Shown here: in pieces, positions 1 to 54,919 of the stretch | Layout of the letters: each line of letters opens with the position of its first letter | Numbering within the stretch: position 1 is the stretch's first letter | Notes under the pieces: model-generated | Seen by the model: the letters and a program-made list of their open reading frames with translations, nothing else | Told to the model about the DNA's origin: nothing | Databases searched by the model: none | Made by a program: the position numbers and the translations under genes | Assembly: GCA_963656785.1 (NCBI GenBank) | Contig: CAVKJB010000010.1 | Location: forward strand, 2,470-66,469 | DNA: 64,000 bases | Reading direction: 5' to 3' | Source: Acutalibacteraceae bacterium | Lineage (GTDB): Bacteria > Bacillota > Clostridia > Peptostreptococcales > Anaerovoracaceae

Positions 1-1385
1 CAATTACGGAAGGGCAGCCGGAGGTGACGGATATCATTGCATCGAATGGCGGCGAAAAGGACGAGTTGTTGCGACTTGCCTATGCCCTCGAAGACAAGAG
101 TGAACATCCGTTGGCGCGGGCGATTGTGGCGGCCTGCAAGGATCGTGTGAAGCTATCGGATGTGACGGATTTCCGGGTATTGGCAGGAAACGGCTTGGCA
201 GGCATCGTGGACGGGGCTCTGGTGCGAGGCGGCTCTCAGAAGTTCATTCAGGGTTTTGCGGAGATACCGACGGAATTGCAGGGTAAAGCCGAAGAACTCG
301 GCATGCAGGGGAAGACTCCGCTTTTCTTCGAGAAAGAGGGAAAAATTCTCGGCATCATCGCCGTTGCAGATGCGATCAAGGAAGACTCTGCACGTGCGGT
401 TCAAGAACTTCAGCAAATGGGTATTGAAGTGGTTATGTTGACTGGTGATAATGAAAATACGGCACGAACGATTGCTTCGCGCGCCGGAATTCATCACGTG
501 ATTGCCGGCGTCCTGCCGGAGGGTAAGGAACAGGTCGTTCGGCGTCTGATGGACAAAGGCCGTGTGGCCATGGTCGGCGACGGCATCAACGATGCACCGG
601 CGCTGACCCGTGCGGATATCGGCATCGCCATTGGAGCAGGCACAGATGTCGCCATTGATTCCGCCGAGGTAGTTCTGATGAACTCGAAACTGACGGATGT
701 CTCTGCAGCGATACGCCTGAGCCGTGGGACGGTGCGAAATATTCACGAGAATCTTTTCTGGGCGTTTGCCTACAACATCCTGTTGATTCCGATGGCCGCG
801 GGGCTGTATCCGGGTGTTGATATCAACCCGATGTGGGGTGCCGCAGCAATGTCGATTTCCAGCTTCACGGTGTGCATGAACGCACTTCGATTGAACCTGC
901 TGCGAATTCATGACAGCAGCAAGGATCGCCCGCTGAAGAATAAGGCCGGGTCTATTCAGAATATCGAAGAAGCGTTCCATATTTCGGAAAATGTAGCCGC
1001 CTCGGAAAGAATTGCAGTAGATGGTTCGTCGGAAAGTTTGGTTAATGGAACCATTATTACTTCCAGCGACAATTCGAATGGCAGCTCGGGGGATGCAGAA
1101 CCGACAGGTTCAATAAATAATTCAATTAATATATTACATAATCAATCAAAGGAGGATCTGAACATGAAAGCAGAAGTAGGAATCAAAGGAATGATGTGCG
1201 GCCACTGTGAAGCCCACGTAAAGAAGGCATTGGAAGCACTGGATGGTGTGCAGGAAGCCGTTCCGAATAAGGACGAGAACAAGGCTGTGCTGACACTGAC
1301 GGCAGACGTTTCCGAAGCTGCGGTGCGGGAAGCAGTGGAAGATGCGGGCTACGAATTTGTGGATTACACAGCTCGCGCGAACTAA
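1..1385 (+). CDS. copA: Heavy-metal (copper-type) P1B-ATPase, 5'-truncated, with C-terminal HMA domain
   Basis: Frame open from the window start (ITEGQPEVTD, as follows DKTGT). Motifs SEHPLA, MLTGDN, MVGDGINDAPAL, WAFAYN and AAAMSISS. C-terminal GMMCGHC metal-binding domain. Confidence 0.9.
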   Translation, partial: ITEGQPEVTDIIASNGGEKDELLRLAYALEDKSEHPLARAIVAACKDRVKLSDVTDFRVLAGNGLAGIVDGALVRGGSQKFIQGFAEIPTELQGKAEELGMQGKTPLFFEKEGKILGIIAVADAIKEDSARAVQELQQMGIEVVMLTGDNENTARTIASRAGIHHVIAGVLPEGKEQVVRRLMDKGRVAMVGDGINDAPALTRADIGIAIGAGTDVAIDSAEVVLMNSKLTDVSAAIRLSRGTVRNIHENLFWAFAYNILLIPMAAGLYPGVDINPMWGAAAMSISSFTVCMNALRLNLLRIHDSSKDRPLKNKAGSIQNIEEAFHISENVAASERIAVDGSSESLVNGTIITSSDNSNGSSGDAEPTGSINNSINILHNQSKEDLNMKAEVGIKGMMCGHCEAHVKKALEALDGVQEAVPNKDENKAVLTLTADVSEAAVREAVEDAGYEFVDYTARAN

Positions 1386-1388
1386 TAC

Positions 1389-1517
1389 TTTCATCGATTA
1401 TCGAAGAGGACGTGCGGGTACCCCTCCTGAAATGTCTTGCAGAATATTTCCGTCGGGGTACCGCACGCCCTTTTCAATGGCGGTCAAATAGACCCTTGTG
1501 GTGAGATTAACACATGC
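1389..1517. repeat. 129-bp direct repeat, copy 1 (contains a long hairpin)
   Basis: tttcatcgattatcg...gattaacacatgc is identical to 1735-1863 by direct comparison. Confidence 0.95.
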
Positions 1518-1734
1518 GTCAGGGGCTTGTCCTTCCTGCCGAAATTATTCTGAAAGACCATTTACGTTGAGAAGCACACCATTTTGCTCCAAAATTATTC
1601 TGAAAGACCATTTTGGAGCAAAGTCGGTGTGCTTCTTAAATGATTACGTCAGAATACATGGGCGGAGTGTCGGAAAATGAAGGCGTATTAGGATAAACCT
1701 ACTTTTAATTGCAGAGATAGAATCAGGGGATCGA

Positions 1735-1863
1735 TTTCATCGATTATCGAAGAGGACGTGCGGGTACCCCTCCTGAAATGTCTTGCAGAATATTTCCGTC
1801 GGGGTACCGCACGCCCTTTTCAATGGCGGTCAAATAGACCCTTGTGGTGAGATTAACACATGC
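1735..1863. repeat. 129-bp direct repeat, copy 2
   Basis: Identical to 1389-1517. Confidence 0.95.
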
Positions 1864-3954: not shown

Positions 3955-4596
3955 ATGAAATTCATTATCAACAGCATCCTGCTGGGCGTGGGACTTGCCA
4001 TGGATGCTTTCTCGGTTTCCATCGTGAACGGATTGAACGAGTGCCACATGTCCCGCATCAAATCTGTGGCAATTGCCGGAACATATGCGGCATTTCAGTT
4101 CGCAATGCCGATGATTGGTTGGTTCTGTGTCTATCGCATTGCGGAGGCGTTTCAAGCATTCCAGAAGTTCATCCCGTGGATTGCACTGCTGCTTCTCCTG
4201 TATATTGGCGGCAAGATGCTGATTGAGGGAGTTCGAGCCTGGGAAGCGTCCAGGTCGAAGGATACCATTGCGACGGGCGGAACAACAGGCGAGACCTCAG
4301 CAGCGGATTGCACAAGGGAAGCAGCGGATCCGCAGGTTTTGACCGCGACCACACTCTTCTTTCAGGGCGTAGCAACGTCCATTGACGCATTATCAGTGGG
4401 ATTCACCATCGCCAATTATAACGCAGCCGGTGCATTCCTGGCGTCCGCCCTGATTGCCGTTACAACTTTTATCATATGCATGGTGGGATTGCTGTGCGGC
4501 AAATGCTTCGGCGACCGTCTGGCGGACAAAGCCAGTATCCTGGGCGGCGTTATCCTGATTCTGATCGGTGTCGAGATTTTCGTAACCGGAATCTAG
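3955..4596 (+). CDS. mntP: Manganese efflux pump MntP family
   Basis: Twin motifs LAMDAFSVS and ATSIDALSVG, with multiple hydrophobic helices. Confidence 0.85.
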   Translation: MKFIINSILLGVGLAMDAFSVSIVNGLNECHMSRIKSVAIAGTYAAFQFAMPMIGWFCVYRIAEAFQAFQKFIPWIALLLLLYIGGKMLIEGVRAWEASRSKDTIATGGTTGETSAADCTREAADPQVLTATTLFFQGVATSIDALSVGFTIANYNAAGAFLASALIAVTTFIICMVGLLCGKCFGDRLADKASILGGVILILIGVEIFVTGI

Positions 4597-18331: not shown

Positions 18332-18615
18332 TTCAGGTGTCGGCCACTTTCGGAAGCCGTAGCTTGTGAAATCCTCAGTGACAAACGGATTATGTAGTCC
18401 ATGTGCAGCGGCTGCATAGCAGAGAGATTGGGGTATAGAGCAACCTGCAGCCGCCGGAAGCCGGGGGCGATGAAAAGGGAATCTGGTGAGAATCCAGAGC
18501 GAAGCCGTCACTGTGTTAGGGAGCAAATCCGCAGAATCACTGGAAATTGCCGAAAGAGCGCAATCCTTCCGGGAAGAGCGGAGGCGCGTTGATCGAAGTC
18601 AGGAGACCTGCCTGA
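18332..18615 (+). ncRNA. Cobalamin (AdoCbl-type) riboswitch with a long P2 arm
   Basis: Core aaaagggaa-tctggtgagaatccaga, cactgt, cactgg...gggaag and B12 box agtcaggagacctgcc. P1 candidate tcaggt (18333) pairs with gcctga (about 18610). Lies upstream of the cob cluster. Confidence 0.92.
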
Positions 18616-18758
18616 GTTGGGGATGTTGGATTTGCGGTACTCGAATCCATTTCCGATGAGGCCGAGCCCGTCTGCGAGAAGGGGGATACCATCTGCAGAG
18701 GGCTAATTTGTGTATGCCGCGAAAGCGAGCAACGCCGGCCGCGGCGGGAGGACGATAA

Positions 18759-20087: not shown

Positions 20088-20576
20088 ATGAAGAAGAGAA
20101 GATTATGGATAGCGCTGGCGCTGACCGTAGTGATGGGGTTGATGGCACTGGCACTGACTGCCTGCAGCAACTCCGGCCTGGACGACGGGTCTTACACCGC
20201 GAAGTTCACCACGGACAGCAAGATGTTCCACGTAAACGAAGCGTATAACGACTACGGGCTCCTGACCGTCAATGACGGAAAGATGACCATTCACGTAACA
20301 CTGGTGTCGAAGCGTATCGTGAATCTGTACCTCGGCACTGCAGAGGATGCCGCAAATGCGGATGAGGCAGATATCCTCCAGCCGACAACGGACGAAGTGA
20401 CGTATGAAGATGGAACGACGGATAAAGTATACGGCTTCGATATCCCGGTGGAGAAGCTCGACGAGGAATTCGACTGCGCCATTCTCGGCAAGTCCGGTAA
20501 ATGGTACGACCACAAGGTGAAAGTATCAGAAGCCGAGCTCGTGAATGGAGACGGTGACGTGGACGGTGACGAATAA
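20088..20576 (+). CDS. Small lipoprotein of unknown function in the cobalamin uptake module
   Basis: Lipobox LTAC, beta-rich acidic domain, RBS gagagg, operonic position. Confidence 0.7.
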   Translation: MKKRRLWIALALTVVMGLMALALTACSNSGLDDGSYTAKFTTDSKMFHVNEAYNDYGLLTVNDGKMTIHVTLVSKRIVNLYLGTAEDAANADEADILQPTTDEVTYEDGTTDKVYGFDIPVEKLDEEFDCAILGKSGKWYDHKVKVSEAELVNGDGDVDGDE

Positions 20577-22213: not shown

Positions 22214-23332
22214 GTGACGGCAGATAACAGACGAAGACGCACAAGATATATCGCAGCGACAGCAGGACTGGGAGTGATTCTCGTCCTGCTTGTTCTGTTG
22301 AATCTGAAACTCGGAAGCACGGATATCAGCCTTCGAGAGGTTCTGGATGTGCTGGGACGAGGCCTTTCGGGTTCGGGAGGAGATAGTGCCGGGAGTGCAG
22401 GCGCCATCGGTGCCATCGAGGGTTCCGGCGCGGATGACGGCATCACAAATGGCATAAGTTACGATATCATCTGGAATATTCGACTCCCGCGAATTCTCAC
22501 CGGTGTAATGCTGGGCGGTGCATTGGCGATATCGGGATATCTCTTGCAGGTCTTCTTTGCGAATCCGATTGCGGGGCCGTACGTACTTGGCATCTCGTCC
22601 GGTGCCAAGCTGACAGTGGCGCTCTCGATGGTATTTCTCTTACAACAGGGAATCACGATGAGTGCACTTGGGATGACCGCAGCGGCTTTCGCCGGATCTC
22701 TGATTGCCATGGGATTTGTGCTGGCACTGTCTGGGCGGATTCGCAACATGTCCATGCTCGTGGTCGTGGGCGTCATGATCGGCTACATCTGTTCCGCGAT
22801 TACGGATTTCGTCGTGACATTTGCGGACGATTCCAACATTGTGAACCTGCACAACTGGTCACTGGGGAGTCTGTCCGGTATAGAATGGGACGGCGTCGGA
22901 CTTTCTTCGCTGCTGGTGTGCATCGGGGTGGTGCTCGCCTTTCTCTTATCGAAACCAATCAGCGCATATCGTCTGGGCGAGGCGTACGCTGTTAGCCTTG
23001 GCGTGAACATTCGACGTCTTCGGATTGCTCTGATTCTTATATCCAGCTTGCTGTCCGGTGTGGTGACGGCTTTTGCAGGCCCGATTTCCTTCGTAGGCAT
23101 TGCAGTGCCGCATCTGATGCGGAGTCTGATTCGGAGTGATGCGCCGATTCGCATGATTCCGGCGTGTTTCCTGGGCGGCGCTTCTGTGACCTTGCTGTGT
23201 GACGGGATCGCGCGAACGATCTTCGCACCGACAGAACTTAGCATCAGCTCGGTGACCGCGGTATTCCTCGTGCCGGTGGTGCTGTATATGATGGTGAGCA
23301 GAGGCCGCGAACGGGATTCGCGGTCAAATTGA
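22214..23332 (+). CDS. FecCD/BtuC-family ABC permease
   Basis: IRLPR, NPIAGPYVLGISSGA, GEAYAVSLG, GPISFVGIAVPH. Confidence 0.9.
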   Translation: MTADNRRRRTRYIAATAGLGVILVLLVLLNLKLGSTDISLREVLDVLGRGLSGSGGDSAGSAGAIGAIEGSGADDGITNGISYDIIWNIRLPRILTGVMLGGALAISGYLLQVFFANPIAGPYVLGISSGAKLTVALSMVFLLQQGITMSALGMTAAAFAGSLIAMGFVLALSGRIRNMSMLVVVGVMIGYICSAITDFVVTFADDSNIVNLHNWSLGSLSGIEWDGVGLSSLLVCIGVVLAFLLSKPISAYRLGEAYAVSLGVNIRRLRIALILISSLLSGVVTAFAGPISFVGIAVPHLMRSLIRSDAPIRMIPACFLGGASVTLLCDGIARTIFAPTELSISSVTAVFLVPVVLYMMVSRGRERDSRSN

Positions 23333-23411
23333 ATTCCATCGAGATTAACAATCCGGAATATCATGGAAGAACATAACAGAGGAAGGCATCCATTTCATTA
23401 AAATTGCGGGA

Positions 23412-30093: not shown

Positions 30094-30133
30094 AAGGAAG
30101 TGCAAAACGATAGCAAAAACAAGGAGATACACT

Positions 30134-30871
30134 GTGAAGCAAGGAAGAATACGCGTTATCGGCATCGGCCCGGGCGAACCGGAGATGATGACGGAAGAAG
30201 TTCGAAAATGCCTGGATGATTGCGATGTGATCGCCGGGTACACCCTCTACGTGGAGCTGATTCGGAAATGTTATCCGGATAAAGATGTTTTTACCACGGG
30301 TATGCGGGGGGAAATCGAACGCTGCCGGGCATGCTACGAGCTTGCGGCCGCCGGAAAGGATGTAGCACTGGTGTGCAGCGGCGACGCAGGTGTGTATGGC
30401 ATGGCGGCACCGGTGTTGGAACTTGGACGGGAGTTTCCGGACATCGAGATTCAAGTGCTGCCGGGAATCACGGCGGCGAACAGTGGAGCGGCTCTGCTGG
30501 GTGCACCGCTGAATCATGACTATTGCGTCATCTCGCTCAGCGATCTGCTGACACCGTGGGCGGTTATCGAACGGCGAATTCGGGCTGCGGTTCAGGGAGA
30601 TTTCTGCATCGCGGTGTACAATCCATCCAGCCGGAAACGTGCGGATTATCTGCGCCGCATGGTCGATATCATGCTGGATGCCGGAGCGGAAGGAAGCCGC
30701 ACGTGCGGATACGTTGAGAACATTGGCCGCGAGGGCACACGGGTGGTTACCTGTTCTCTCTCCGAGCTTCGGAATGCAGAGGTGAATATGTTCACCACGG
30801 TGTACGTGGGAAATTCTGCGACCTACATCGAGAATGGCCGGATGATCACCCCGAGGGGGTACAAGCTTTAG
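30134..30871 (+). CDS. cbiH: Cobalt-factor III/precorrin-3B C17-methyltransferase
   Basis: GIGPG, SGDAGVYGMA, GAPLNHD, SLSDLLTPW, YNPSS, ITPRGY. GTG start after aaggag. Confidence 0.93.
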   Translation: MKQGRIRVIGIGPGEPEMMTEEVRKCLDDCDVIAGYTLYVELIRKCYPDKDVFTTGMRGEIERCRACYELAAAGKDVALVCSGDAGVYGMAAPVLELGREFPDIEIQVLPGITAANSGAALLGAPLNHDYCVISLSDLLTPWAVIERRIRAAVQGDFCIAVYNPSSRKRADYLRRMVDIMLDAGAEGSRTCGYVENIGREGTRVVTCSLSELRNAEVNMFTTVYVGNSATYIENGRMITPRGYKL

Positions 30872-31035
30872 CGGGTGCGATGAGGCAAGATGTATCCGCG
30901 GAATCCCGTTGGCGTGCATCAATCGGAACGGACTTACGAAACCTTACCCGGGGTCACGCGATGGGCTAATCAGAGGAAGACTTGTGCAGGGTCAGAGCCG
31001 AAGAACGCTTACAAGATCAGTGAAAGGATATCGGA

Positions 31036-33642
31036 ATGAACAAAGTGCTAATCTACGGCGGCACAACAGAGGCATGGATATTGGCAGAGGAATTGGCGAA
31101 GGCGAAGATTACCTGTCTGGTGTTTGTTGCGACGGAGTATGGCGAGGCGATGATGGATGGACAGAATCCCTATCTGCATATGCACGTCGGCAGATTGACC
31201 GCCGAAGAGATGGCAGATTTCTATGATGCGGAGAAACCAGATGCCATTGTCGATGCGACGCACCCGTATGCGGAAGCTGTCAAGGAGAACATTCATAAGA
31301 GCCTTCAAGAACGACGGACGAATCGGGATATCCCGTTCTTTCGAATTTACCGGGAAGAAGAGCCAAGGGCTGATGTCAGAGGCGCGCGGTATTTCGGGAG
31401 CGTGGAGGATTGTGCGGAGGCACTTAGGAAGACCAACGGGAAGGTCTTCCTAACGACGGGAAGCAAGTCGCTTCCGATCTTTACACAGGACGAATCCCTG
31501 CGGAGGCGGCTGACCGTACGCGTGCTTCCAAGCCTGGAAAGCTTGGAGATTTGCCGGGATTGCGGAATTCCGGGGAATCGGATTATTGCGATGCAAGGGC
31601 CTTTCTCAGAAGAGATGAACAGAGAGATGCTTCGTGCGGCGGATTCAGATATTCTGGTACTCAAGGAGAGCGGAAAGCCCGGTGGGGAAGCCAGCCGGAT
31701 TGCCGCTGCGCAGAAACTGGGTGTGGCCTGCTATATTATTTCCCGTCCGACAGAGAAGATAGAAGGTCATTCGCTTCCTGACGTCCTGGATCAATTGCTC
31801 GAACTATTTGGAGGGAAGACGAGACAGAGAAATAGACTGGCGGGCGCCCTACATCAAAACCGATTAGATCCGGAGGTTTGTAATAGGGACAGATTACGCG
31901 GATTGGATGAAGTAAATTCGAATCAGGGTGCGAATGGAAGTCACGATAACTATAATTCCAATAGCAATAATCGAAAAAAAACGTCGAACAGCCTCCCATC
32001 TACGCGAGTAGCACCTCGAACGGTTTTCTGGGAAATCTCGCTAATCGGAATTGGAATGGCCTCCTCCGTTCACTTGACGAAGGAAGCGGAAGAAGCACTG
32101 GGTGAGGCGGATTTTCTTTTCGGTGCCCCGCGGATGATTGACAGCATCTCCGGATTTGACCCGGATAGATTGAAGTTTCCGTACTACACGGCAGATAGAA
32201 TTCTTCCGGCATTATCTGATCTCAGTGACACCGCAAAGACACACGTCAAATCGTATTCGACGCCAATCGTCACCTTGCGGGCAGCCATTCTGTTCTCTGG
32301 CGATACCGGCTTTTGCAGCGGATGCGCGAAGCTCTATGCGAAGCTTCAGAAATTGGAGAATACCAGCGTTCGAATTCTTCCGGGCATTTCATCCGTCTCG
32401 GCGATGGCGGCTGCCTGCGGCGTCAGCTGGCAGGATGCCGCGATATTAAGTACGCATGGAATTCCGGCGAGAGAATGGATTCCCCGCTTTGTGGATGCGA
32501 CAAGACACCAATCCCGGACTTTCTGCATCACCTCCGGAAGCCGGGACATCCGGACGATCGGGAACTTGCTGCTGGAAAGTGAGCGATTCTTCGCGGCACG
32601 GAACGGAGCACATACAGCGGTTGCAGCTGCATTGTCTGTGCCGTGCGGCACAGAGGCTGACTCAACGGCCAAGACCAATGCCAAGACCAACGACAAGGCC
32701 GACGACAATATCGGCAAACAGAATTCTGGGGATTTCGCGGCAAAGTGTTTGCCGGAAAGTTCCGGTTCCTATGAGATAACCATCGGACGCAATCTCGGAG
32801 ATGAAACAGAGAGAATACTGCACCTTGCGGCGGAGGATTGTATCCGTCTTGACGAACCGGGTTTATACACGGTGCTGGTAGAAAACAACAATCCGGCGCC
32901 GCGTCGGGTGAGTCCGGGCTCGGTGGATGATGTTTTTACCCGGGGGAAAACCCCGATGACGAAAGAAGAAATTCGCGCACTGTCCATCTGCAAATTGAGG
33001 CTCGATGCGGACAGTGTGGTCTATGACATCGGCTGCGGTACCGGTTCGGTGAGCTGCGACATCGCGGTGCTGTCGCCGGAAATTCAGGTATACAGCGTGG
33101 ACATGAAGCCGGAAGCAACAGAATTGACCCGTTTCAACGCGGCGAAGCTCCGGCTGATGAATGTTGCCGTGCACGAGGGCACTGCACCGGAATGCCTCGC
33201 GGGCCTGCCGGCTCCGACGCATGTTTTTGTGGGAGGGAGTAACGGAAATCTTCGGAACGTGATAGAATACCTTAAGACTTTCGGAACGCGAATCCGTGTT
33301 GTGGTGACCGCGGTGAGCCTCGAGACGATCAGCGAGCTGACGCAGCTAGTCAAGGAAATCGAATCCGGTGATATGGCGGAAAGAGTGGATACCGGTTCGA
33401 TCGGGACTGTTGCAACAGGGATGGACCCCAATGCAGCCGATGACACGGCTTCGCGTGTCATCGTTACAAATGATGTAGCTCCAAATGCGGACAGAGCGGT
33501 ACGGATGGAAAAGAATGCACATCCGGAGGTCGAACTCGTGCAGGTTTCCGTCAGCCGAAGCCGCCGTTTGGGTAGCCATCACCTGATGACGGCGGAAAAT
33601 CCGGTATATATTGCTTCGTTCACGATTCAGTCTGAGGGCTGA
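31036..33642 (+). CDS. cbiJ: CbiJ-CbiE-CbiT triple fusion (precorrin-6A reductase / C5- and C15-methyltransferases)
   Basis: GGTTEA, VATEYG, DATHPYA, LTTGSK, MQGPFS (CbiJ). GIGM, SGDTGFCSG, PGISS (CbiE). PMTKEEIR, DIGCGTGS, FVGGS, AENPV (CbiT). Confidence 0.9.
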   Translation: MNKVLIYGGTTEAWILAEELAKAKITCLVFVATEYGEAMMDGQNPYLHMHVGRLTAEEMADFYDAEKPDAIVDATHPYAEAVKENIHKSLQERRTNRDIPFFRIYREEEPRADVRGARYFGSVEDCAEALRKTNGKVFLTTGSKSLPIFTQDESLRRRLTVRVLPSLESLEICRDCGIPGNRIIAMQGPFSEEMNREMLRAADSDILVLKESGKPGGEASRIAAAQKLGVACYIISRPTEKIEGHSLPDVLDQLLELFGGKTRQRNRLAGALHQNRLDPEVCNRDRLRGLDEVNSNQGANGSHDNYNSNSNNRKKTSNSLPSTRVAPRTVFWEISLIGIGMASSVHLTKEAEEALGEADFLFGAPRMIDSISGFDPDRLKFPYYTADRILPALSDLSDTAKTHVKSYSTPIVTLRAAILFSGDTGFCSGCAKLYAKLQKLENTSVRILPGISSVSAMAAACGVSWQDAAILSTHGIPAREWIPRFVDATRHQSRTFCITSGSRDIRTIGNLLLESERFFAARNGAHTAVAAALSVPCGTEADSTAKTNAKTNDKADDNIGKQNSGDFAAKCLPESSGSYEITIGRNLGDETERILHLAAEDCIRLDEPGLYTVLVENNNPAPRRVSPGSVDDVFTRGKTPMTKEEIRALSICKLRLDADSVVYDIGCGTGSVSCDIAVLSPEIQVYSVDMKPEATELTRFNAAKLRLMNVAVHEGTAPECLAGLPAPTHVFVGGSNGNLRNVIEYLKTFGTRIRVVVTAVSLETISELTQLVKEIESGDMAERVDTGSIGTVATGMDPNAADDTASRVIVTNDVAPNADRAVRMEKNAHPEVELVQVSVSRSRRLGSHHLMTAENPVYIASFTIQSEG

Positions 33643-33761
33643 AGAACAGAAATCGATGATACCGACGGAAGCATGGAACAAATGGAACAAGAAGATGAAT
33701 GAATAGATAATCCGGACACCGCGGGACAGAGGCCGCAGCACCCGGATGGAAAGGAGCGCCC

Positions 33762-35294
33762 ATGAAACAACCGCGAATCGTCATCGCTGCACCGGCCAGC
33801 GGAACCGGCAAGACGACCGTCACCTGTGCGCTTCTGGAAGCACTTCGCCGCCGGCATGTGGATGTTTGCTCCTTCAAATGCGGCCCGGATTACATCGATC
33901 CCCTATACCACCGACAGGTCATTGGTATCCCCTCGGGAAACCTTGACTTATTCTTCACCGATCCGCTAAAAACAAAATTCCTCTTTTCCCGGGAATTCCG
34001 AGGAAGCCTGGCGGTCATCGAGGGGGTGATGGGCCTCTACGACGGTCTTGGCGGAATCCGTGAGGAGGCATCCACCTATCATCTGGCACAGACGCTGGAG
34101 GCACCGATCATTCTGGTGGTGAATGCTCAAGGGGTGGGCCGGTCTGTACTCGCCCAAATTCGCGGAATGCTGGACTACGACCATGACAAGCTGATTCGAG
34201 GGGTGATTCTGAACCGGGTGAGTGCCTCTTTCGGACAGACCCTTGCAGCACTGATTGAGGAAGAGCTCGGCATTGAAGTATTGGGGTTCCTGCCGAATCG
34301 GAAAGAGCGGGCAGTGGAAAGCCGGCACTTAGGACTGGTGCTTCCGAGTGAAATAGCGGATCTTCGGGAGAAACTGGGAGAGCTTGCGACGGAGCTGGAG
34401 GCGCATGTGAATGTCGGGAGACTGCTGGAATTGGCGGAATGCTTGGGATCGCCGGAATTCGACTCGGGCATGGAGAAGACGGATGCAAGTGAGAATGTCG
34501 AGATCCTTCGTTCTTTCGGCATAACGAAGAAGCGTGAAAATAGGGAGTGCGAGAACCATGACGGATCTGTGGAATCCGTCCTTGCGGGATCATCGAGCGC
34601 ATCGGTTCGGATTGCGGTCGCACGCGACGAGGCGTTCTGCTTCTATTATCGGGAGAACCTGGAGCTTCTTCGGGAACTGGGTGCGGAGCTTGTTTATTTT
34701 TCCCCGCTAAGAGACCGGAAACTGCCGGAGAATATGGATGGAATGCTGATTGGCGGAGGATACCCGGAGCTTCATCTGGAGCAACTGTCCTCCAATTATT
34801 CGCTTCGAACCGCGATTCTGGAGGCAGCAGATTCCGGCATGCCGATTCGGGCAGAGTGCGGCGGCTTCATGTATCTGGGCACAGGTATTACCGCAGAGGA
34901 TTCGGCGATGACGGAACCGGCACAAGAGGAGCCGCCCAGAGATTCGATGGCGTTGGAAGCGGCAAAGGAAACGCGCACCTATCCGATGGTCGGACTACAT
35001 CCCGGAGTCTTTGTGCGGAAGGGGATGACCGGCCGGTTTGGCTATATCACGCTGACTTCGAGGGCGACGGGAAAACAAATCCGAGCACATGAGTTCCATT
35101 ACTATGATTGTGTGGACATCAAGGATTGCGGTGCTTACTACCTGGCGGAAAAACCGGTGGGTGGAAAAAGCTGGCATTGCATGGTGGAGAAGGGAAATGT
35201 CCTGATGGGATTTCCGCATCTCTATTATCCGTCGAACCCGAATTTTGCGAAGGAATTCATCGCACAATGCCGGAGCTGGAAGAATGGCAGGTAA
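33762..35294 (+). CDS. cbiA: Cobyrinate a,c-diamide synthase
   Basis: SGTGKT, FKCGPDYIDP, IEGVMGLYDG, ESRHLGL, DEAFCFYY, GGGYPE, ECGGFMYL, HEFHY. Confidence 0.95.
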   Translation: MKQPRIVIAAPASGTGKTTVTCALLEALRRRHVDVCSFKCGPDYIDPLYHRQVIGIPSGNLDLFFTDPLKTKFLFSREFRGSLAVIEGVMGLYDGLGGIREEASTYHLAQTLEAPIILVVNAQGVGRSVLAQIRGMLDYDHDKLIRGVILNRVSASFGQTLAALIEEELGIEVLGFLPNRKERAVESRHLGLVLPSEIADLREKLGELATELEAHVNVGRLLELAECLGSPEFDSGMEKTDASENVEILRSFGITKKRENRECENHDGSVESVLAGSSSASVRIAVARDEAFCFYYRENLELLRELGAELVYFSPLRDRKLPENMDGMLIGGGYPELHLEQLSSNYSLRTAILEAADSGMPIRAECGGFMYLGTGITAEDSAMTEPAQEEPPRDSMALEAAKETRTYPMVGLHPGVFVRKGMTGRFGYITLTSRATGKQIRAHEFHYYDCVDIKDCGAYYLAEKPVGGKSWHCMVEKGNVLMGFPHLYYPSNPNFAKEFIAQCRSWKNGR

Positions 35295-35453
35295 TTTGCC
35301 CCTCTGCGGGGAATTCATGGAATCAAAGGGGACATATTGAGAAGTCGGAAGATCGCAAGGACAAATACGGCAGATTGCAATTCGACAGATCGAAAAGATG
35401 TCACTCCGAAGATGTCAAGAAGAAAGAGCGATATAACACGAAGGTATTTCTGA

Positions 35454-35831
35454 ATGAAGAATTCATTTCGATATTTCGAGAACAGAGAATGTCAATATTA
35501 TCCCTGTCACTTAGGTATGGAGTCGATGAATTGTCTCTTCTGCTACTGCCCGCTGTATTTCCTTCCGGAATGTCCCGGACACAGAGAATACATAGAGAGC
35601 CAGGGCCGACGGATTCTTAGCTGCAAGGATTGCGATTACCCGCATCGTGCAGAGAATTACGGAGAAATGATGCGGATCCTTAAGGCGACAATCGCAGCTA
35701 CCGGGGACGCAGCGTCAGAAAACCCGAAGAAGGACGAACCTTCTGAAGAACGGGAAACCGGCGGAAAGGATGAATGCGTAGAGTTCCCCGAGGATACGGG
35801 CAAAGCGACCTTGGGAAGGGCTTCGAAATGA
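35454..35831 (+). CDS. Cysteine-rich small domain protein (zf-like, found in cobalamin clusters)
   Basis: FENRECQYYPCH, NCLFCYCPLY, C..C..PH. Confidence 0.75.
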   Translation: MKNSFRYFENRECQYYPCHLGMESMNCLFCYCPLYFLPECPGHREYIESQGRRILSCKDCDYPHRAENYGEMMRILKATIAATGDAASENPKKDEPSEERETGGKDECVEFPEDTGKATLGRASK

Positions 35832-35922
35832 TGCGAATTTCCGAGAGATTCGCGGGCGCGGAAGAAGCGGAGGAAAAAACAGACGATTGAAGGTATGCAA
35901 ACTACAGGAGGGGGATTCTTAC

Positions 35923-37056
35923 ATGTCGATTCGCATCGAGGATGTACTGACGGGAAACAAACGTATTCTTCCGGTGAATCCGGAGAGACTTCGAATCCTG
36001 CAGGGGAACTGGGATCGAATTGCGAAACCCATCGGGAGCTTTGGCAAATTCGAACAAATCCATAGTCGGATTGCTGCCATTCAGGGATCGGATCCCCCGG
36101 ATTTGGAACATATGAGACTGCTGGTCTGCTGCGGGGATCATGGGATCGTCGAAGAGGGCGTCAGTCAATCTCCGCAGAGCGTCACGGCAGTCTGTGCGGA
36201 GAATATCGGAAGAGGTGTCAGCACTGCCGGCATCTTGGCGAAAGCTGCAGGTGCAGAGATTCGAGCCGTTGATGTGGGCATCAATCAGAGGGGATCGGTG
36301 CCGGAAACAGAATACAGACGAGTCGCGAACGGAACACGGAATTTTCTGCGAGAACCGGCGATGACGAAGCAGGAATTTCGACAAGCGCTCCAGGTAGGTG
36401 TTAATCTGGCAGAAGAGAGCCGAAAGGACGGAGTGACGATTCTGGGCATTGGTGAGATGGGAATCGGAAACACCACATCGGCAGCAGTACTGACGGGGAA
36501 GATGCTGGGCCTTACCGCGGAGGAGGTCACCGGACACGGAGCCGGATTGGATTCCGCCGGGATGCAGCGGAAGCTCGAAGTGGTGCGGACGGTGTTGACG
36601 CAAGCAGCATGCAAGACGCCATCAGAATCCCGGATTATGGCGAGATTGGGTGCCGAACCGGACGTTTCGGAAGATATCGAGTCTGTTTTTGCCCGGTACG
36701 GCGGATTGGAACTCGCAGCGATGACCGGCATTATTATCGGAAGTGCATTCTGCGGGATTCCGGCCCTATTGGACGGCGTGCTGAGCATGGTTTCTGCATT
36801 GGCGGCGGAAAAAATGGTGCCGGGATGCCGGGAATACCTGATTCCCTCGCACATGAGCCGGGAGCCGGCGGCGGAGAAGCTGGCGGCGGAGCTTGGCTTG
36901 GATCCCGTCATAGACGGAGCGATGGCAACCGGAGAAGGAGCCGGTTCGGCGTTGATGATGTCGATGCTTCAGACCGTGGATCGCGTCTATCGGGAAGCTG
37001 CGCGGTTTGATGGGTATGGTATTGCGGAGTACACGAGATACGAAGAGGTGGAATAG
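35923..37056 (+). CDS. cobT: Nicotinate-nucleotide-dimethylbenzimidazole phosphoribosyltransferase
   Basis: AKPIGSFG, DHGIVEEGVS, GEMGIGNTT, GGLELA, LDG, SREP, GEGAG. RBS aggaggg before ATG 35923. Confidence 0.93.
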   Translation: MSIRIEDVLTGNKRILPVNPERLRILQGNWDRIAKPIGSFGKFEQIHSRIAAIQGSDPPDLEHMRLLVCCGDHGIVEEGVSQSPQSVTAVCAENIGRGVSTAGILAKAAGAEIRAVDVGINQRGSVPETEYRRVANGTRNFLREPAMTKQEFRQALQVGVNLAEESRKDGVTILGIGEMGIGNTTSAAVLTGKMLGLTAEEVTGHGAGLDSAGMQRKLEVVRTVLTQAACKTPSESRIMARLGAEPDVSEDIESVFARYGGLELAAMTGIIIGSAFCGIPALLDGVLSMVSALAAEKMVPGCREYLIPSHMSREPAAEKLAAELGLDPVIDGAMATGEGAGSALMMSMLQTVDRVYREAARFDGYGIAEYTRYEEVE

Positions 37057-37731
37057 ATGATTGTGCTAATTGAAGGCGGCAGCTGCAGCGGAAAGTCGGA
37101 ATACGCGGAGCGACGGGCGCTCGCGTTCGGGAACCGAAATGCGTATTATGCGGCCACAATGGAGGCGATGGACAGAGAGTCGCAGCGCCGGGTAGAGCGG
37201 CATCGGAAGCGTCGCGAGGGAGCTGATTGGGTGACTATCGAACAGCCACGTCACATCGAGGAGTTGGCAGGGCATATTAGTGATTACGATTCGGTCGTGC
37301 TGCTTGAGTGCATGTCGAATCTGGTGGCGAATGAGATGTACAGTGAGCATGAGGATGAAGATGGCGGCTCGCCGAAAGCCTGTGCGGAAACAATCCTTGA
37401 TGGCGTCCTGGAGGTGGCGGAAACCGTGGAGAACTTGATTGTCGTTACGAACAACGTTTTCGAAGACGGCGTGGCAGCGGTCCCGGAGCTTCGGGAATAT
37501 CTCAAGGTGCTGGGCAGTGTCAACGAAGCACTGGCCGCACAAGCGGATGAGGTAATCGAGATGGTGGTAGGCATCCCGGTTTTTCACAAAGGTGGAGCTG
37601 GTGACAAGGGCGAGACTGGTGGCAAATCTGACCATGGATGCGGCAATAGCGGATGCAACAACGGCTTCGCTCCTGGTGAAAGCGATGCACCCTTCGGCCG
37701 TTCCAAGCAGAGGGAACTGAATCCATGCTAA
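37057..37731 (+). CDS. cobU: Adenosylcobinamide kinase/guanylyltransferase
   Basis: GGSCSGKSEYAE, YAATM, HRKRR, LLECMSNLVANE, VVTNNV. Confidence 0.9.
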   Translation: MIVLIEGGSCSGKSEYAERRALAFGNRNAYYAATMEAMDRESQRRVERHRKRREGADWVTIEQPRHIEELAGHISDYDSVVLLECMSNLVANEMYSEHEDEDGGSPKACAETILDGVLEVAETVENLIVVTNNVFEDGVAAVPELREYLKVLGSVNEALAAQADEVIEMVVGIPVFHKGGAGDKGETGGKSDHGCGNSGCNNGFAPGESDAPFGRSKQRELNPC

Positions 37732-38509: not shown

Positions 38510-39082
38510 ATGAAGTTGTTTATCGGCGGATACGCCCAGGGTAAAAATAAATATGCTCAAGCTCGCTTTCCCGGTTATGCATTCCTGGATGAGAAGAATT
38601 ACGAGATCGGCGTGGGAATTATGAATGGCGAAGTTGGGCCTATCGAGACGGCATCACCTGTGAAGTGCGATGATGCCGCAATGACGGAAGCCGTTACCGC
38701 AGACGAAGTGACGAAGGAATCAACCTTTGCGAAACATGATCCCAGAGAGGATACAAGTGAAACCGCAACAGAAGCAGAATCTCAGAAAGCCGCTAACCAG
38801 GGAATTCTGGTGAACCATCTCCATCGAATCATCCGTCAAGAATTGGAATCTGGACGAACGGAAGATGAGATTCGGGAGGAAATCCTGATGCTGGGAAGAC
38901 AACCTTTCGAAGTGGTCTTTCTTTGCGATGAGCTGGGGAATGGCATTGTACCGATTGACCCGGACGAAAGGAAATGGCGGGAAGTGGTCGGCCACATTCT
39001 GATGGCGATTGCGGAGGAAGCCAATGAAGTCCTGCGAATTTTCTGCGGTATCCCGGAAGTCATCAAGAAGGACTCGAATTAG
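38510..39082 (+). CDS. Second, divergent CobU-like protein
   Basis: IGGYAQGK at the N-terminus and DELGNGIVP..ERKWREVVG..RIFCG at the C-terminus. RBS aggagg. Confidence 0.75.
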   Translation: MKLFIGGYAQGKNKYAQARFPGYAFLDEKNYEIGVGIMNGEVGPIETASPVKCDDAAMTEAVTADEVTKESTFAKHDPREDTSETATEAESQKAANQGILVNHLHRIIRQELESGRTEDEIREEILMLGRQPFEVVFLCDELGNGIVPIDPDERKWREVVGHILMAIAEEANEVLRIFCGIPEVIKKDSN

Positions 39083-39083
39083 T

Positions 39084-40016
39084 ATGCCCCCGATCCGCTT
39101 ATCCCACTTAAATTCTCCGACATCTACGTCAGACTCGGCAGCTTCTTTTCATTCCGTGACTCTTTCCGACTCGACGGACATCTCTCGCTCCGTATGCTCA
39201 TTCGATTCCGCAGAACCTGAAAACATGGTCTTCCACATCTTTCTGATCCGCCACGGCGCGACGCCGGGTAATCTGGAAGGCCGGTACATCGGCCGAACGG
39301 ATGAATCTCTGTCGGAAACAGGGCGAGACGAAATCCTTCGACGTCAGTATCCACCGGTGGATATCGTCTTCACCAGTCCGATGAGAAGATGCCTGGAGAC
39401 CGCGTCCCTAATCTATTCCCCCAAAACAGGATCTATAAGCTTCGATGCGGAGTGGTGCTGCTCGGAGCAGGTAGATCTGACGGAGTCCGGAGCCGCGCGA
39501 ATCTCCCTGGATCTGACCCGTCAGGTGGACTCCGATGCGAGGCGCATGGTTCGCGTCATTGAAGAGTTCCGAGAGACGGATTTTGGTGCTTTCGAAGGAA
39601 AGAATCACCAAGAGCTGGACGGAAACGAGGATTATCAGGCGTGGATTGATAGCTTGGGGGAGTTGCCTTTCCCCGGCGGGGAAAGCCGGATGGACGTGAA
39701 TGCCAGGGTGATACGTGGATTTCGCATAATGATGAAGGATGTGGAAAGTTATATCCGCAATGCCGGTAAAGACATATCTATTGCCATCATTTCCCATGGC
39801 GGAACGCTGATGACGATGCTTCAGGCGCTTTTCGGCGGAAACTATTACGACTATCTGATGAAGAACGGAGAAGGTTATTCTTTTGAAATATCACATGACG
39901 GCATTTGCAGCGGGCTTCGTGCTCGATCTTATCATCGGAGATCCGGAGAACTGGCCGCATCCGGTGCGATGGATCGGCAGTCTGATTGCAAAACTCACGA
40001 ACCGTTTCCTGAATAG
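39084..40016 (+). CDS. cobC: Histidine phosphatase, probable alpha-ribazole phosphatase
   Basis: LIRHG, YIGRTD, SPMRRC, ETDFGAFEG, PGGES, HGG. Start is uncertain (39084 or 39225). Confidence 0.8.
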   Translation: MPPIRLSHLNSPTSTSDSAASFHSVTLSDSTDISRSVCSFDSAEPENMVFHIFLIRHGATPGNLEGRYIGRTDESLSETGRDEILRRQYPPVDIVFTSPMRRCLETASLIYSPKTGSISFDAEWCCSEQVDLTESGAARISLDLTRQVDSDARRMVRVIEEFRETDFGAFEGKNHQELDGNEDYQAWIDSLGELPFPGGESRMDVNARVIRGFRIMMKDVESYIRNAGKDISIAIISHGGTLMTMLQALFGGNYYDYLMKNGEGYSFEISHDGICSGLRARSYHRRSGELAASGAMDRQSDCKTHEPFPE

Positions 40017-40929
40017 AGCAAATATAATCCGAGACCCCATCGAGCAGAAACGGACGAAACGCCGATTTGGCCGGATCTTGGTGTTGCTGGTGATTCTTAT
40101 CTCCGGCACCACGACTGCTGTGCTGCTTGTGGGTGCGTATTGCGTTCATCCAGTATTTGGCTGCATTCTGGAAGCCTGGCTCACATTTCGCCTGCTGGCG
40201 ACAAAGAGTCTCCGGGATGCCTCTATGAATGTTCATCGCGCGCTGACTGATGAGAATAGTACAATGGAGGATGCGAGGTACGCGGTATCCATGATTGTGG
40301 GCCGCGACACAGCGGCACTCGATGAGACTGGCATCACCAAAGCTACCGTTGAAACTGTCGCGGAGAATACATCCGACGGCATCATCGCGCCTATGATCTA
40401 TACCGCTATCGGCGGTCCCATCCTGGGTATCATTTATAAATCCATTAACACCATGGATTCCATGGTCGGTTACCGGAATGATCAATACATAGACTTTGGC
40501 CGTGCCGCCGCATTGACGGACGATGTTGCGAACTTCCTGCCAGCGAGAATCAGCGGCATATTGATGATAGCTGCCACTGGCATCCTGAGAATCGTGTGGA
40601 AACTGTCGAACGGAAAGTGCAAGGAAAGTAGCGTTCCACTTTACTCCGCATCCAATGCCCTGCACATCTTTCGTCGCGACCGACGGAAGCACGCCAGCCC
40701 GAATGCTGCCCACACCGAGGCGGTCTGTGCCGGTGCTCTATCCATCGAGCTGGCCGGAGATGCCTCTTATTTCGGGGAAATTCATCACAAACCCACGCTG
40801 GGGGATCCTATTCGCCCCGTTGAATCCGATGACATCATAAGAGCCAACCGATTAATGCTTGGCACGGCAATAATCTGCGAACTGTTGTGCCTGACGGTGA
40901 TGGCACTGCTTGTCTATATTCGCACATAG
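39883..40929 (+). CDS. cbiB: Adenosylcobinamide-phosphate synthase
   Basis: GDP..WPHPV, IVGRDT, ETVAENTSDG, YKSINTMDSMVGY, DDVANFLPAR, HASPNA. Start is TTG 39883 or ATG 39895. Confidence 0.93.
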   Translation: MKYHMTAFAAGFVLDLIIGDPENWPHPVRWIGSLIAKLTNRFLNRANIIRDPIEQKRTKRRFGRILVLLVILISGTTTAVLLVGAYCVHPVFGCILEAWLTFRLLATKSLRDASMNVHRALTDENSTMEDARYAVSMIVGRDTAALDETGITKATVETVAENTSDGIIAPMIYTAIGGPILGIIYKSINTMDSMVGYRNDQYIDFGRAAALTDDVANFLPARISGILMIAATGILRIVWKLSNGKCKESSVPLYSASNALHIFRRDRRKHASPNAAHTEAVCAGALSIELAGDASYFGEIHHKPTLGDPIRPVESDDIIRANRLMLGTAIICELLCLTVMALLVYIRT

Positions 40930-52015: not shown

Positions 52016-52048
52016 CAGCAATTCTACGTTGCTGCCGTGGGTCTTTTT
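52006..52048 (+). terminator. Riboswitch terminator overlapping the 3' strand of P1
   Basis: agactcatggcagcaa...ttgctgccgtgggtct followed by a T-run. Mutually exclusive with P1, giving ON-switch geometry. Confidence 0.8.
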
Positions 52049-52111
52049 GATTCAATCGAGGTAAGCCACAGGATCTTGAGAAGACGAACCGAATAGGAGG
52101 TTACATTAGAG

Positions 52112-54919
52112 ATGGAAGAGAGAAGAATGGAAGATCGGAAGGGGATTGCGAACGCAGTTTCAAAATCCGAAGCAGAATGCAGTGCGGCAAATGTTTCGGA
52201 ATCTGCTTCGAAATGTCCGATGGAAACGACCCTGGGCAGCAAGAATGCATCTGCCGCTGAGTCGGAAGCGCAGGTGCTGTACTACATGAGGTCCGCCGAT
52301 GAAGTGCTGGCAGAGTTGAACAGTTCGGGTAAAAAAGGCATTTCCTCAGACGAAGCTGCCGCAAGACAGTCGCAGTACGGCATGAACAGGCTGGCAGCGC
52401 CTCCGGGAAAGAGCCTGATAAGACGATTTATCGAGCAGATGATGGATCCGATGATTATCATTTTGCTGGTGGCAGCATTTGTCAGCCTGATTCTATCCGT
52501 GACGCAGGGCGAGAGCTTTGCCGACACCATCATCATTCTGGCGGTAGTTATCATCAATGCCATCTTGGGCGTGTACCAGGAGAGCAAGGCGGAGAAAGCC
52601 ATTGAAGCTCTCAAGGAAATGTCCGCGGCGACATCTCACGTCATTCGTGATGGAAAGAAAGTGACGATTCGCAGCGAAGAGCTGGTACCCGGGGATGTGG
52701 TTCTGCTGGAAGCCGGAGACGCGGTTCCGGCAGACGGCCGAATTATTGAGTGTGCCGGCCTTCGAATTGAAGAGTCCGCATTGACCGGAGAGTCCGTTCC
52801 GGTGGACAAGCTGCTGAATCTGGTCATGGATCGGGAAAGCAAGCAGGTTCCGCTGGGCGACCGTAAGAATATGGTATATATGGGCAGCACCGTCGTGTTC
52901 GGCCGTGGTGTGGTGGTGATCACTGAGACCGGAATGAACACGGAGATGGGTAAGATCGCCGAAGCGCTGACCCAGGCAGAGGAGGGTGAGACGCCGCTGC
53001 AGAAGCAGATGGGCGAGCTGTCTCACATTCTCACCAAGCTTGTATTGGGAATCTGTGTGGTCGTATTTGCGATTCAGCTGATTCGCATGGGAAGCTTCAG
53101 CTTCGAGGTGATTCTGAATTCGTTCATGATTGCGGTATCTCTGGCGGTTGCCGCAATTCCGGAAGGCCTCGCAGCTGTTGTTACCGTTGCACTTTCCATC
53201 GGCGTTACGAACATGTCGAAGCGCAGTGCCATCATCCGAAAACTGACCGCAGTCGAGACACTGGGCTGTGCTCAGGTTATTTGCTCGGATAAAACCGGCA
53301 CACTGACGCAGAACAAAATGACCGTCGTAAAGAAGTACTCCGATGCGACGAAGGAACTCGCCCTGGCTATGGGCCTTTGTAATGATGCGGAGATGGACGA
53401 TAAGGACGAAGCCGTTGGAGAGCCGACCGAGGCCGCACTGGTGAAATGGGCAGCGGATAACGGCGGTGACAAACGAAAAGAAGCGCTTGCGTACAAGCGT
53501 GTGGGAGAAGCTCCTTTCGATTCCGGCCGTAAGATGATGTCGGTTATCTGTGAGAAACCGAATGAACCGAACACTTACATTCAGTACACCAAGGGAGCTC
53601 CGGACGTGCTCCTCGGAAGATGTACTCATGTACTTCGGGGTAACGATGTGGTTGCATTGACAGCAGAATTGCGGGAAGAAATCTCGTCTGCCAACCGCGA
53701 TATGGCTGACGAGGCTCTTCGTGTGCTTGCAGCCGCTTGTCGCAGATGGGATACTGTGCCGGAGTGCACATCCGAGAATCTGGAGAAGGATATGATCTTC
53801 CTCGGACTCTGCGGCATGATCGACCCGATTCGTCCGGAAGTTAAGGGTGCCATCGAGGAATGCCGAGACGCAGGCATCCGTCCGGTCATGATCACCGGAG
53901 ACCACGTGGATACCGCAACCGCCATCGCTCGACAGCTGGGCATCCTGGATGACGGCCGAATTGCCATCACCGGTTCGCAGTTGAGCGATATGAGCGATGA
54001 GGAATTCGATCGGGAAATTCTGAACATCGGTGTATACGCTCGTGTTCAGCCGGAGCACAAGACAAGAATCGTCAACACGTACCGAAAGCTCGGCTTCGTC
54101 ACCGCGATGACCGGCGACGGCGTCAATGACGCACCGTCCATTAAATCCGCGGACATTGGCGTTGGAATGGGAATCACCGGAACCGATGTGACCAAGAATG
54201 TGGCGGATATGGTGCTGGCGGATGATAATTTTGCGACCATTGTCAACGCGGTTGAGGAAGGTCGCCGAATCTATGCCAACATTCGGAAATCCATTCAGTT
54301 CCTGATTGGTTCCAACATGAGCGAGGTGCTGAGTATTTTCTTCGCAACACTCCTTGGCTTCACGATCTTAAAACCGGTCCATCTCCTCTGGATTAACTTG
54401 ATCACGGACTGCTTCCCGGCTCTGGCTCTCAGTATGGAATCCGGTGAGCCGGATATCATGAGCCGGAAACCGAGAGATTCCCGCGCGGGCATTTTCGCCG
54501 GAGGCATGGGCTTCGATATCGCTTATCAGGGAACGCTCGTCACGATTCTGGTGATGGCCTCCTACTTCATCGGCCACTTCATGGAATCCGGCGTCTGGGA
54601 GATTACCAACAGTGCAGACGGTACCACTATGGCGTTCGTGACCATGTCCATGGCGGAAATCTTCCACAGCTTCAACATGCGTTCGCAGCGCGAAAGTCTG
54701 TTCCATCTGAAGAAAATGAACTTCTTCCTGATCGGTGCTGCAGCTGCATCCCTGATTGCGACAACTGTCGTATGCGAAATCCCGCTGCTGGCTGCAGCTT
54801 TCGACTTCACCGCGGTGGATCTTCACGAATACCTTGTGGCCATAGCGCTCGGATTCATGATTATTCCGTGCGTGGAAATCGTTAAATTCTTCCAGCGTAA
54901 GAAAGAAAGCGAGAAATAA
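52112..54919 (+). CDS. P2-type (Ca2+/Mn2+) cation-transporting ATPase
   Basis: LTGES, AVAAIPEGL, CSDKTGTLT, KGAPD, DPIR, MITGD, MTGDGVNDAP, LWINLITD. Confidence 0.93.
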   Translation: MEERRMEDRKGIANAVSKSEAECSAANVSESASKCPMETTLGSKNASAAESEAQVLYYMRSADEVLAELNSSGKKGISSDEAAARQSQYGMNRLAAPPGKSLIRRFIEQMMDPMIIILLVAAFVSLILSVTQGESFADTIIILAVVIINAILGVYQESKAEKAIEALKEMSAATSHVIRDGKKVTIRSEELVPGDVVLLEAGDAVPADGRIIECAGLRIEESALTGESVPVDKLLNLVMDRESKQVPLGDRKNMVYMGSTVVFGRGVVVITETGMNTEMGKIAEALTQAEEGETPLQKQMGELSHILTKLVLGICVVVFAIQLIRMGSFSFEVILNSFMIAVSLAVAAIPEGLAAVVTVALSIGVTNMSKRSAIIRKLTAVETLGCAQVICSDKTGTLTQNKMTVVKKYSDATKELALAMGLCNDAEMDDKDEAVGEPTEAALVKWAADNGGDKRKEALAYKRVGEAPFDSGRKMMSVICEKPNEPNTYIQYTKGAPDVLLGRCTHVLRGNDVVALTAELREEISSANRDMADEALRVLAAACRRWDTVPECTSENLEKDMIFLGLCGMIDPIRPEVKGAIEECRDAGIRPVMITGDHVDTATAIARQLGILDDGRIAITGSQLSDMSDEEFDREILNIGVYARVQPEHKTRIVNTYRKLGFVTAMTGDGVNDAPSIKSADIGVGMGITGTDVTKNVADMVLADDNFATIVNAVEEGRRIYANIRKSIQFLIGSNMSEVLSIFFATLLGFTILKPVHLLWINLITDCFPALALSMESGEPDIMSRKPRDSRAGIFAGGMGFDIAYQGTLVTILVMASYFIGHFMESGVWEITNSADGTTMAFVTMSMAEIFHSFNMRSQRESLFHLKKMNFFLIGAAAASLIATTVVCEIPLLAAAFDFTAVDLHEYLVAIALGFMIIPCVEIVKFFQRKKESEK

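Follow-up and report, generated by a model that had tools for sequence, protein, structure and literature searches.

Graded expansion of enzyme loops and intergenic spacers in a clade of Anaerovoracaceae

Among the closest described counterparts of the DNA considered here are the Rickettsia palindromic elements (RPEs), which insert in frame, with a length of about 150 bp, into metabolic genes unrelated to one another, stay compatible with the protein fold and form families that have sequence and a conserved peptide in common (PMC10969869). The subject of this study is a stretch of 64,000 nucleotides from an Acutalibacteraceae bacterium (GTDB family Anaerovoracaceae; assembly GCA_963656785.1, contig CAVKJB010000010.1, positions 2,470 to 66,469), hereafter the window, which contains an anaerobic cobalamin cluster preceded by a cobalamin riboswitch, together with copA, mntP, argJ, argB and a P-type ATPase gene. 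As with RPEs and MITEs (transposable elements of the miniature inverted-repeat kind), the extra DNA of the window lies in frame within conserved open reading frames. In contrast to these elements, the inserts of the window share no sequence and have no general palindromic fold, given that stems occur in only 6 of 19 inserts and that 35 others from elsewhere in the genome hold only three. Coding minisatellites offer a second comparison, as in-frame units of 9–45 nt are found in some inserts and one copy-number difference separates assemblies of the species. However, here the effect reaches approximately 7% of the genes and nearly half of the gene junctions under comparison, most inserts are aperiodic, and repeat density is not raised. 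A preliminary description, made from the letters of the window alone, had read these segments as hairpin-forming in-frame insertions and extensions found across the window in enzymes that are otherwise conserved. We find that the expansion of loops and spacers spans the whole genome and is thus wider than that description saw.

The window lies on contig C10 of the source genome (G000; 2.0 Mb, 87% complete, 50% GC), which we compared with eight congeners (G001–G008) and with family outgroups. G006 is the sister species of G000, and G005 was the main compact congener for pairwise counts. In a comparison with 1.22 Mb of G005, the G000 protein was the longer one at 52 internal indels of at least 15 aa and the G005 protein at 5 (671 gene pairs), counts that include some naturally variable linkers. 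The 52 cases are spread over 45 genes on many contigs, with 12 on the contig of the window. With 1.44 Mb of G005 the counts were 59 and 8 (798 gene pairs), and the comparison of G006 with G005 gave 7 and 0 in 106 pairs. C-terminal tails show the same asymmetry (23 longer in G000, 7 longer in G005), as do the junctions between genes, whose median length is 96 nt in G000 versus 38 nt in G005 and which are longer by at least 30 nt in G000 at 164 of 350 sites and in G005 at 12. The length differences at junctions, taken modulo 3, divide 63/52/49 and thus have no frame bias, whereas 33 of 35 segments of intragenic extra DNA kept an open reading frame in a test that would have revealed broken frames; the remaining two seem to be gaps that precede the true start. 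Therefore, frame within genes is imposed by selection and not by the process that supplies the DNA.

Several comparisons across the genus bear on the direction of this change. First, the junctions of the cob genes are mostly compact in the family outgroups and in six congeners, with exceptions that include cbiT–cbiA in G001 and G007, and gain in the G000–G006 clade is therefore the simple reading. Second, in a control with the same genes and matched divergence, G001 and G007 together have 1 long insert compared with 13 in G000, and their median junction excess is +1 versus +61 nt (27 junctions). Third, the degree of expansion follows the phylogeny, in which a tree from 5346 alignment columns places (G003,(G000,G006)) beside ((G001,G007),(G008,G004,G002,G005)). 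On shared genes G003 is intermediate, with 5 long inserts to the 12 of G000 and a junction excess of +12.5 versus +92 nt (20 junctions), and G006 has 7 long inserts to the 8 of G000 with a junction excess of +118 versus +53 nt (39 junctions). The two most expanded species are often expanded at different sites; for example, the CobQ of G006 lacks the insert found in G000 and has a 54-aa insert of its own. This difference in sites indicates that the process continued after the two species split.

Alignment with congeners delimits 19 segments in the window (17–74 aa, 2349 nt in total), with borders that are gaps of pairwise alignments and include a few flanking residues. Every insertion or extension named in the preliminary description was recovered, that is, those in copA, mntP, the permease gene btuC, cobQ, cbiD, cbiG (two), cbiJET (three), cbiA (two), cobT, cobU, the cobU-like gene, cobC and the N-terminus of the P-type ATPase, and a further extension was found in a small Cys-rich protein (zf). 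That description had proposed looking for the same segments in orthologs from other taxa, and they are missing in the compact congeners G001, G004 and G008 and in the family outgroups. As had been claimed, the inserts keep frame in every gene aligned and are polar, with 13.3% serine and 3.9% leucine compared with 5.8% and 8.7% in the cores, although they are only mildly low in complexity. The same segments are kept in the proteins of two to four other assemblies of the species per gene, and assembly error is thus not their source. A scan of metagenomes for close strains at the DNA level returned relatives of only 27–45%. Across the assemblies 43 of 547 insert positions and 72 of 3799 core positions vary (10 of the 12 members of the ATPase cluster, with at least 20 core changes, were left out as distant), so that inserts change approximately four times faster than cores. 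Neither a stop nor a length-changing frameshift was found in the other assemblies' versions of the insert-bearing proteins.

All of the expanded sites of the window are on the plus strand. Upstream of the cobalamin genes, a linker region of 55 aa in copA (972–1136) is approximately 40 aa longer than in congeners, and a loop region of 25 aa is expanded in mntP (4264–4338). The G/S-rich insert of the btuC-like permease (22343–22456, 38 aa region) is invariant across three other assemblies. It is followed by the first of several expanded spacers, btuC–btuD (23333–23411), where the junction is 121–151 nt compared with −4 to 26 in six congeners (237 versus 91 in G006). The btuD–cobQ spacer (24249–24330) corresponds to what was first taken to be an N-terminal extension of CobQ and is probably untranslated. 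For cobQ and cobC alike the extra DNA at the 5′ end probably belongs to an expanded spacer and not to the protein, judging from where the genes are called: database calls give CobQ as 540 aa, and the CobC of G006 begins near the conserved core. Within cobQ there is an insert (25465–25629, 55 aa region) that G006 lacks and that contains stems at 25518/25541 and 25593/25617. The insert in cbiD (26965–27057, 31 aa) is longer in G006, and the spacer between cbiD and cbiF (27952–28041) measures 90 nt compared with 7 in G005. The two inserts in cbiG (29341–29457, 39 aa; 29860–30009, 50 aa) include, in the first, the strongest imperfect inverted repeat among window inserts (z 4.8). The genes cbiF and cbiG (region 28042–33642) are fused in G000, G003 and G006 and separate in G001 and G008.

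The junction between cbiH and cbiJ (spacer 30872–31035) is 167 nt, compared with 10–12 in congeners and 26 in G006. In the cbiJET fusion that follows, inserts occupy the cbiJ–cbiE linker (31810–32031, 74 aa region), a loop of cbiE (32587–32775, 63 aa region, with a 12-nt tandem duplication and stems at 32635/32647 and 32712/32746) and cbiT (33367–33525, 53 aa, with a 10-bp stem at 33438/33454). An AlphaFold2 model of CbiJET predicts all three as coil with a predicted local distance difference test score (pLDDT) below 50, which for the linker covers residues 260–325, in a model whose mean pLDDT is only 64, and the predicted domains match the CobK and CbiT folds. A distant CbiJET relative (P0119, 813 aa) has inserts of its own, built from 5-aa tandem repeats, at the cbiJ–cbiE linker and in other loops; thus, repeat-built loop expansion recurs in this protein. 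The cbiT–cbiA junction (spacer 33643–33761) is 125–134 nt versus 8–42 in five congeners, with 305 in G001 and G007. cbiA has two inserts (34455–34595, 47 aa region; 34884–34970, 29 aa region) and is separated by a spacer of 159 nt (35295–35453), at which the G005 genes overlap, from the gene of the Cys-rich protein with its C-terminal extension (35766–35828). Farther downstream are the 18-aa insert of cobT (36604–36657), which G006 lacks, the C-terminal extension of cobU (37606–37728), which is common to G006 in diverged form, the insert of the cobU-like gene (38609–38776, 56 aa region), whose stem at 38649/38671 lies in a part missing from G006, the insert of cobC (39414–39545, 44 aa), whose stem at 39481/39527 is lost in G006, and finally the 45-aa N-terminal extension of the P-type ATPase (52142–52276), whose stem of 9 bp (52168/52202) remains paired in G006. 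Gene boundaries vary in this region: cobD (39883–40929) overlaps the 3′ end of cobC by more than 100 nt, cobQ and cbiC form one frame in G001 and G007, and the cobU-like gene and cobC form one frame in G002, G004, G005 and G008.

We favor, with moderate confidence, the explanation that insertions of tens of bases arose more often in G000 and its sister species, likely by local tandem duplication, and that they were kept only where harmless. Slipped-strand or short-homology duplication would seed a loop or spacer, and repeated rounds would lengthen it while substitutions erased the repeat signal. Events that shifted the frame or broke a core would be purged, such that survivors in genes would be in frame, polar and predicted to be disordered. 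Besides the asymmetry and its direction, the growth of spacers without frame bias and the faster protein change in inserts, tandem repeats are observed in a minority of inserts. In-frame repeats with periods of 9, 15, 33, 36 and 45 occur in 5 of 15 G006 inserts, and the cobD of G006 has a 47-aa insert made of 36-nt repeats. In G000, direct self-similarity exceeds z 3 in 6 of 53 inserts (P 0.014 for inserts versus cores), and in five of these six the period is a multiple of 3. Several expanded spacers contain short tandem units, and in one case among seven protein clusters examined, that of cbiJET, a 12-nt (4-aa) unit differs in copy number, with two other assemblies lacking it. The inserted DNA also looks native, as its 4-mer profile follows the host (r 0.88 with cores and 0.87 with spacers, range 0.82–0.88). 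One of the 35 segments outside the window (86 aa, membrane-like and probably a deletion in G005) was dropped from the self-similarity, 4-mer and tight-hairpin analyses. A foreign origin was considered and set aside for region 28000–35900, where comparison with phages (2 records) and plasmids (11) returned cob genes where annotated, although matches internal to inserts are not strictly excluded by that comparison.

Loss of repair genes was considered and rejected as an explanation. mutS is present in all nine genomes of the genus and sbcD in eight of nine, recJ, xseA and a recG-like gene were found in five of five, Ku was not found in nine genomes nor recQ in five, and topB had no match above the cut-off in five. 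The pattern is alike in expanded and compact genomes, and these genes therefore do not separate them. mutS and the gene next to it, mutL by position (G000:C7 28888–33764), are themselves expanded, and MutS of G006 has 955 aa compared with 884–890 in five compact congeners. The gene for DNA polymerase IV, dinB, behaves differently. It is present in G001 and stands between two conserved genes in G005, G008 and G003, whereas the same flanking genes are adjacent in G000 (approximately 170 nt apart) and G006 (approximately 270 nt); the syntenic-site loci are G000:C4 18257–18397, L332, L333 and L260:8063–9334. No other copy of dinB was found in G000, and the family was matched in 48 of 60 genomes of the bacterial family. 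Pol IV is a deletion-prone polymerase, and its loss may, speculatively, have helped to shift the balance of indels. We regard the absence from both expanded species as one shared loss and as a correlate only. A remaining Y-family polymerase paralog (G000:C8, approximately 56700–58200) has a frame of 551 aa compared with 444–446 in G001 and G005 and lies away from its G005 neighborhood.

Several observations weigh against a supply of duplications as the explanation. No trace of a repeat is left in 47 of the 53 G000 inserts, only 3 of 53 resemble their own flanks at z of at least 2.5, and the density of tandem repeats is not raised overall (92 per Mb in G000, 132 in G005 and 157 in G006). Clean indels of 40–75 aa between G000 and G006 have no junction repeats longer than 6 nt, so that single large events may predominate. 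The longest shared junction word is 3–6 nt in 16 such indels and reaches 6 in five of them (null 18%), although decay may have removed short duplications. Inverted repeats point in another direction as well, since the 15 G006 inserts hold 5 stems of 8 bp versus 1.8 expected (P 0.035) and mismatch-tolerant inverted self-similarity is raised (P 0.008 overall; 0.008 in the window, 0.077 outside). As for dinB, it has no strong match in G014 and G023, both of which have a compact CobQ, and G003 retains it yet is partly expanded. Finally, all measured sites lie between constrained borders and do not provide a neutral measure of indel bias. Serial duplication with decay as the source of most inserts is thus our best inference and not a demonstration. 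Of the preliminary description's proposals, a lineage-specific process acting at tolerant sites stands, and local duplication stands for a minority of inserts only.

A stronger version of the duplication hypothesis, which we put forward only tentatively, is that a free-living clade reversed the prokaryotic deletion bias: hundreds of spacers and dozens of enzyme loops would have gained 50–200 bases of DNA that is unique and self-templated, separately in each species, following a change in the replication machinery that included the loss of Pol IV. In the survey of Kuo and Ochman (2009, PMC2817411), each of 14 prokaryote groups had more deletions than insertions. The quantity concerned is the one that matters here, the balance between small gains and losses of DNA by which spacer length is set, and the clade described here has a net gain, measured at constrained sites only. 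According to a published model of border-induced selection, short gaps under constraint should gain DNA on balance (PMC9748784), and the present counts alone therefore cannot show that the mutation bias was reversed.

The same model lends support to an alternative that we consider unlikely, namely that the mutation spectrum is ordinary and that selection for compactness has weakened, through small populations or slow growth, such that bordered insertions survive while deletions are purged. All measured sites are indeed bordered, and 369 of 1063 G005 proteins are without a close match in G000, which hints at gene loss in a genome that is itself only 87% complete. However, the compact congeners have the same borders and no expansion, and border-induced selection by itself does not explain why they stay compact. 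Moreover, core dN/dS (the ratio of nonsynonymous to synonymous divergence) is lower between G000 and G006 (0.089) than between compact pairs (0.12–0.15), a ratio that depends on time, the compact pairs being younger. The value of 0.089 indicates that the cobalamin pathway is not decaying, and the enzyme cores of the expanded species remain under purifying selection. Two known cases of protein length change invite comparison. In insect endosymbionts, the variance of ortholog length rises under drift in small genomes (PMC4007534). That case and the present one are both changes in ortholog length at the level of a lineage in a small genome, but here the change is directional and the cores keep a low dN/dS. 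In Plasmodium, polar low-complexity insertions lengthen proteins across the proteome under weaker constraint (10.1101/2020.03.14.992107); that organism is a eukaryote of extreme composition, whereas this bacterium has 50% GC, its inserts are only mildly low in complexity, and its spacers expand in parallel.

The preliminary description drew attention to hairpins. The five stems that it quoted (two in cobQ and one each in the cobU-like gene, cobC and the ATPase) are exact reverse complements, and three more are present in the cbiJET inserts. One way to read them is hairpin-templated insertion, in which fold-back or template-switch synthesis at stalled forks writes inverted repeats that later decay. 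The 19 window inserts hold 8 perfect stems of at least 8 bp, two with loops of at most 6 nt, compared with 1.3 in dinucleotide shuffles, none of 300 of which reached 8, and the count also exceeds codon-permutation and Markov-4 nulls (1.7 for Markov-4; 1.3–1.7 across nulls). Core coding DNA has 27 such stems in 33,333 nt. The G006 stems and the inverted self-similarity described above favor this reading too, as do the expanded spacers, with 8 stems versus 3.8–5.3 expected. However, the window inserts are the very set whose stems prompted the idea, and the excess is not genome-wide. The 35 inserts outside the window have 3 stems versus 2.3 expected and three additional G000 inserts have none; at 7 bp the G006 inserts have 10 versus 7.7. 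Tight hairpins are near or below Markov-3 expectation (ratios of 0.8–1.3 outside the window, 0–1.0 in G006 inserts and 0.6–1.0 in 63 spacers), inserts are on average unlike their inverted flanks (mean z 0.02), and sbcD is present. Words typical of this genome, such as CGGA and GAATC, abound in the inserts, which raises the number of stems that arise by chance. Thus, the recurrence of stems holds as an excess within the window, and they probably reflect the symmetric words of the genome itself together with the fact that they were the reason for choosing this window. We judge hairpin templating improbable, and the hairpin reading itself adds little.

Still less probable is the proposal that inserts are kept for stems in the mRNA, for example because these pause translation within the cobalamin operon. 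Selection for RNA structure had been suggested because many pairs are G-U, but with such pairs counted the minimum free energy (MFE) of window inserts is no better than that of core coding DNA (z −0.75 versus −0.51, P 0.34), and the same is true outside the window (−0.22 versus −0.33); the mean in G006 inserts is −0.06. What speaks for the proposal is the excess of stems in the window together with the ATPase stem. Two stems lie in regions shared with G006, and of these the cobC stem is lost whereas the ATPase stem (52168–52210) retains all its pairs through nonsynonymous changes, one involving both sides and two yielding G-U; the region of the cobU-like stem is missing there. This exception, drawn from two sequences and a structure prediction made on the same pair, is a lead and no more. 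An Rfam scan of the start region of the ATPase gave no family at threshold and three sub-threshold matches, and an RNA-family scan of the window found only the cobalamin riboswitch (18434–18629, ahead of cbiK) and a tRNA (57578–57650, minus strand).

The idea that inserts and spacers contain decayed palindromic elements, akin to RPEs or MITEs, is already largely refuted, and we give it very little credence. The size range and the in-frame position of the inserts are like those of RPEs (PMC10969869), and a small palindromic repeat is present between genes of the window (1389–1863). Nevertheless, a search of the genome with the window inserts found no copy elsewhere at E 0.01, and an all-against-all comparison of 53 inserts and 65 expanded spacers gave matches of only 10–21 nt, with a few short multi-copy matches in two spacers. 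No family emerged from either search, which argues against dispersed repeats and agrees with the earlier remark that the inserts have no shared consensus; even inserts confined to one species have nothing in common, and no junction repeat is longer than 6 nt. Last, the suggestion that the inserts are spliced out or bypassed by the ribosome, leaving normal enzymes, found no supporting point and is almost certainly wrong, given the open frames of 33 of 35 extra segments, the absence of intein families among the 47 window proteins scanned with Pfam and the lack of stops or length-changing frameshifts in other assemblies.

Some further repeats and genes of the window deserve mention. In the intergenic repeat after copA (1389–1879), a palindromic core (1567–1639) is flanked by two direct copies of 136 nt (98%), with related pieces twice on contig C13 and also in G006 and G003; it resembles a small repetitive extragenic palindrome or MITE and is unrelated to the coding inserts. 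A short intergenic repeat at 8738–8868 matches four other contigs and precedes an inverted repeat of 20 nt that lies between convergent genes. The proteins encoded at 55683–57395 and 20088–20576 are conserved, and neither reached the thresholds applied for any Pfam or NCBIfam family; the former has what we take to be a Walker A-like motif.

We found no report of a bacterial clade of this kind in literature searches whose coverage left out most subscription papers. Bacterial genomes are held to stay compact through deletion bias (PMC2817411), and here a clade with graded, directional gain stands beside equidistant compact congeners. This gradation makes the cause testable, as a matter of mutation supply versus selection and with dinB as a candidate gene. 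The expansion also maps surface sites in cobalamin enzymes, MutS, MutL and P-type ATPases that tolerate 20–75 extra residues. If the deletion bias was indeed reversed, the clade would provide a bacterial model for eukaryote-like disordered loops and long spacers that arise without mobile elements or relaxed selection on protein cores.

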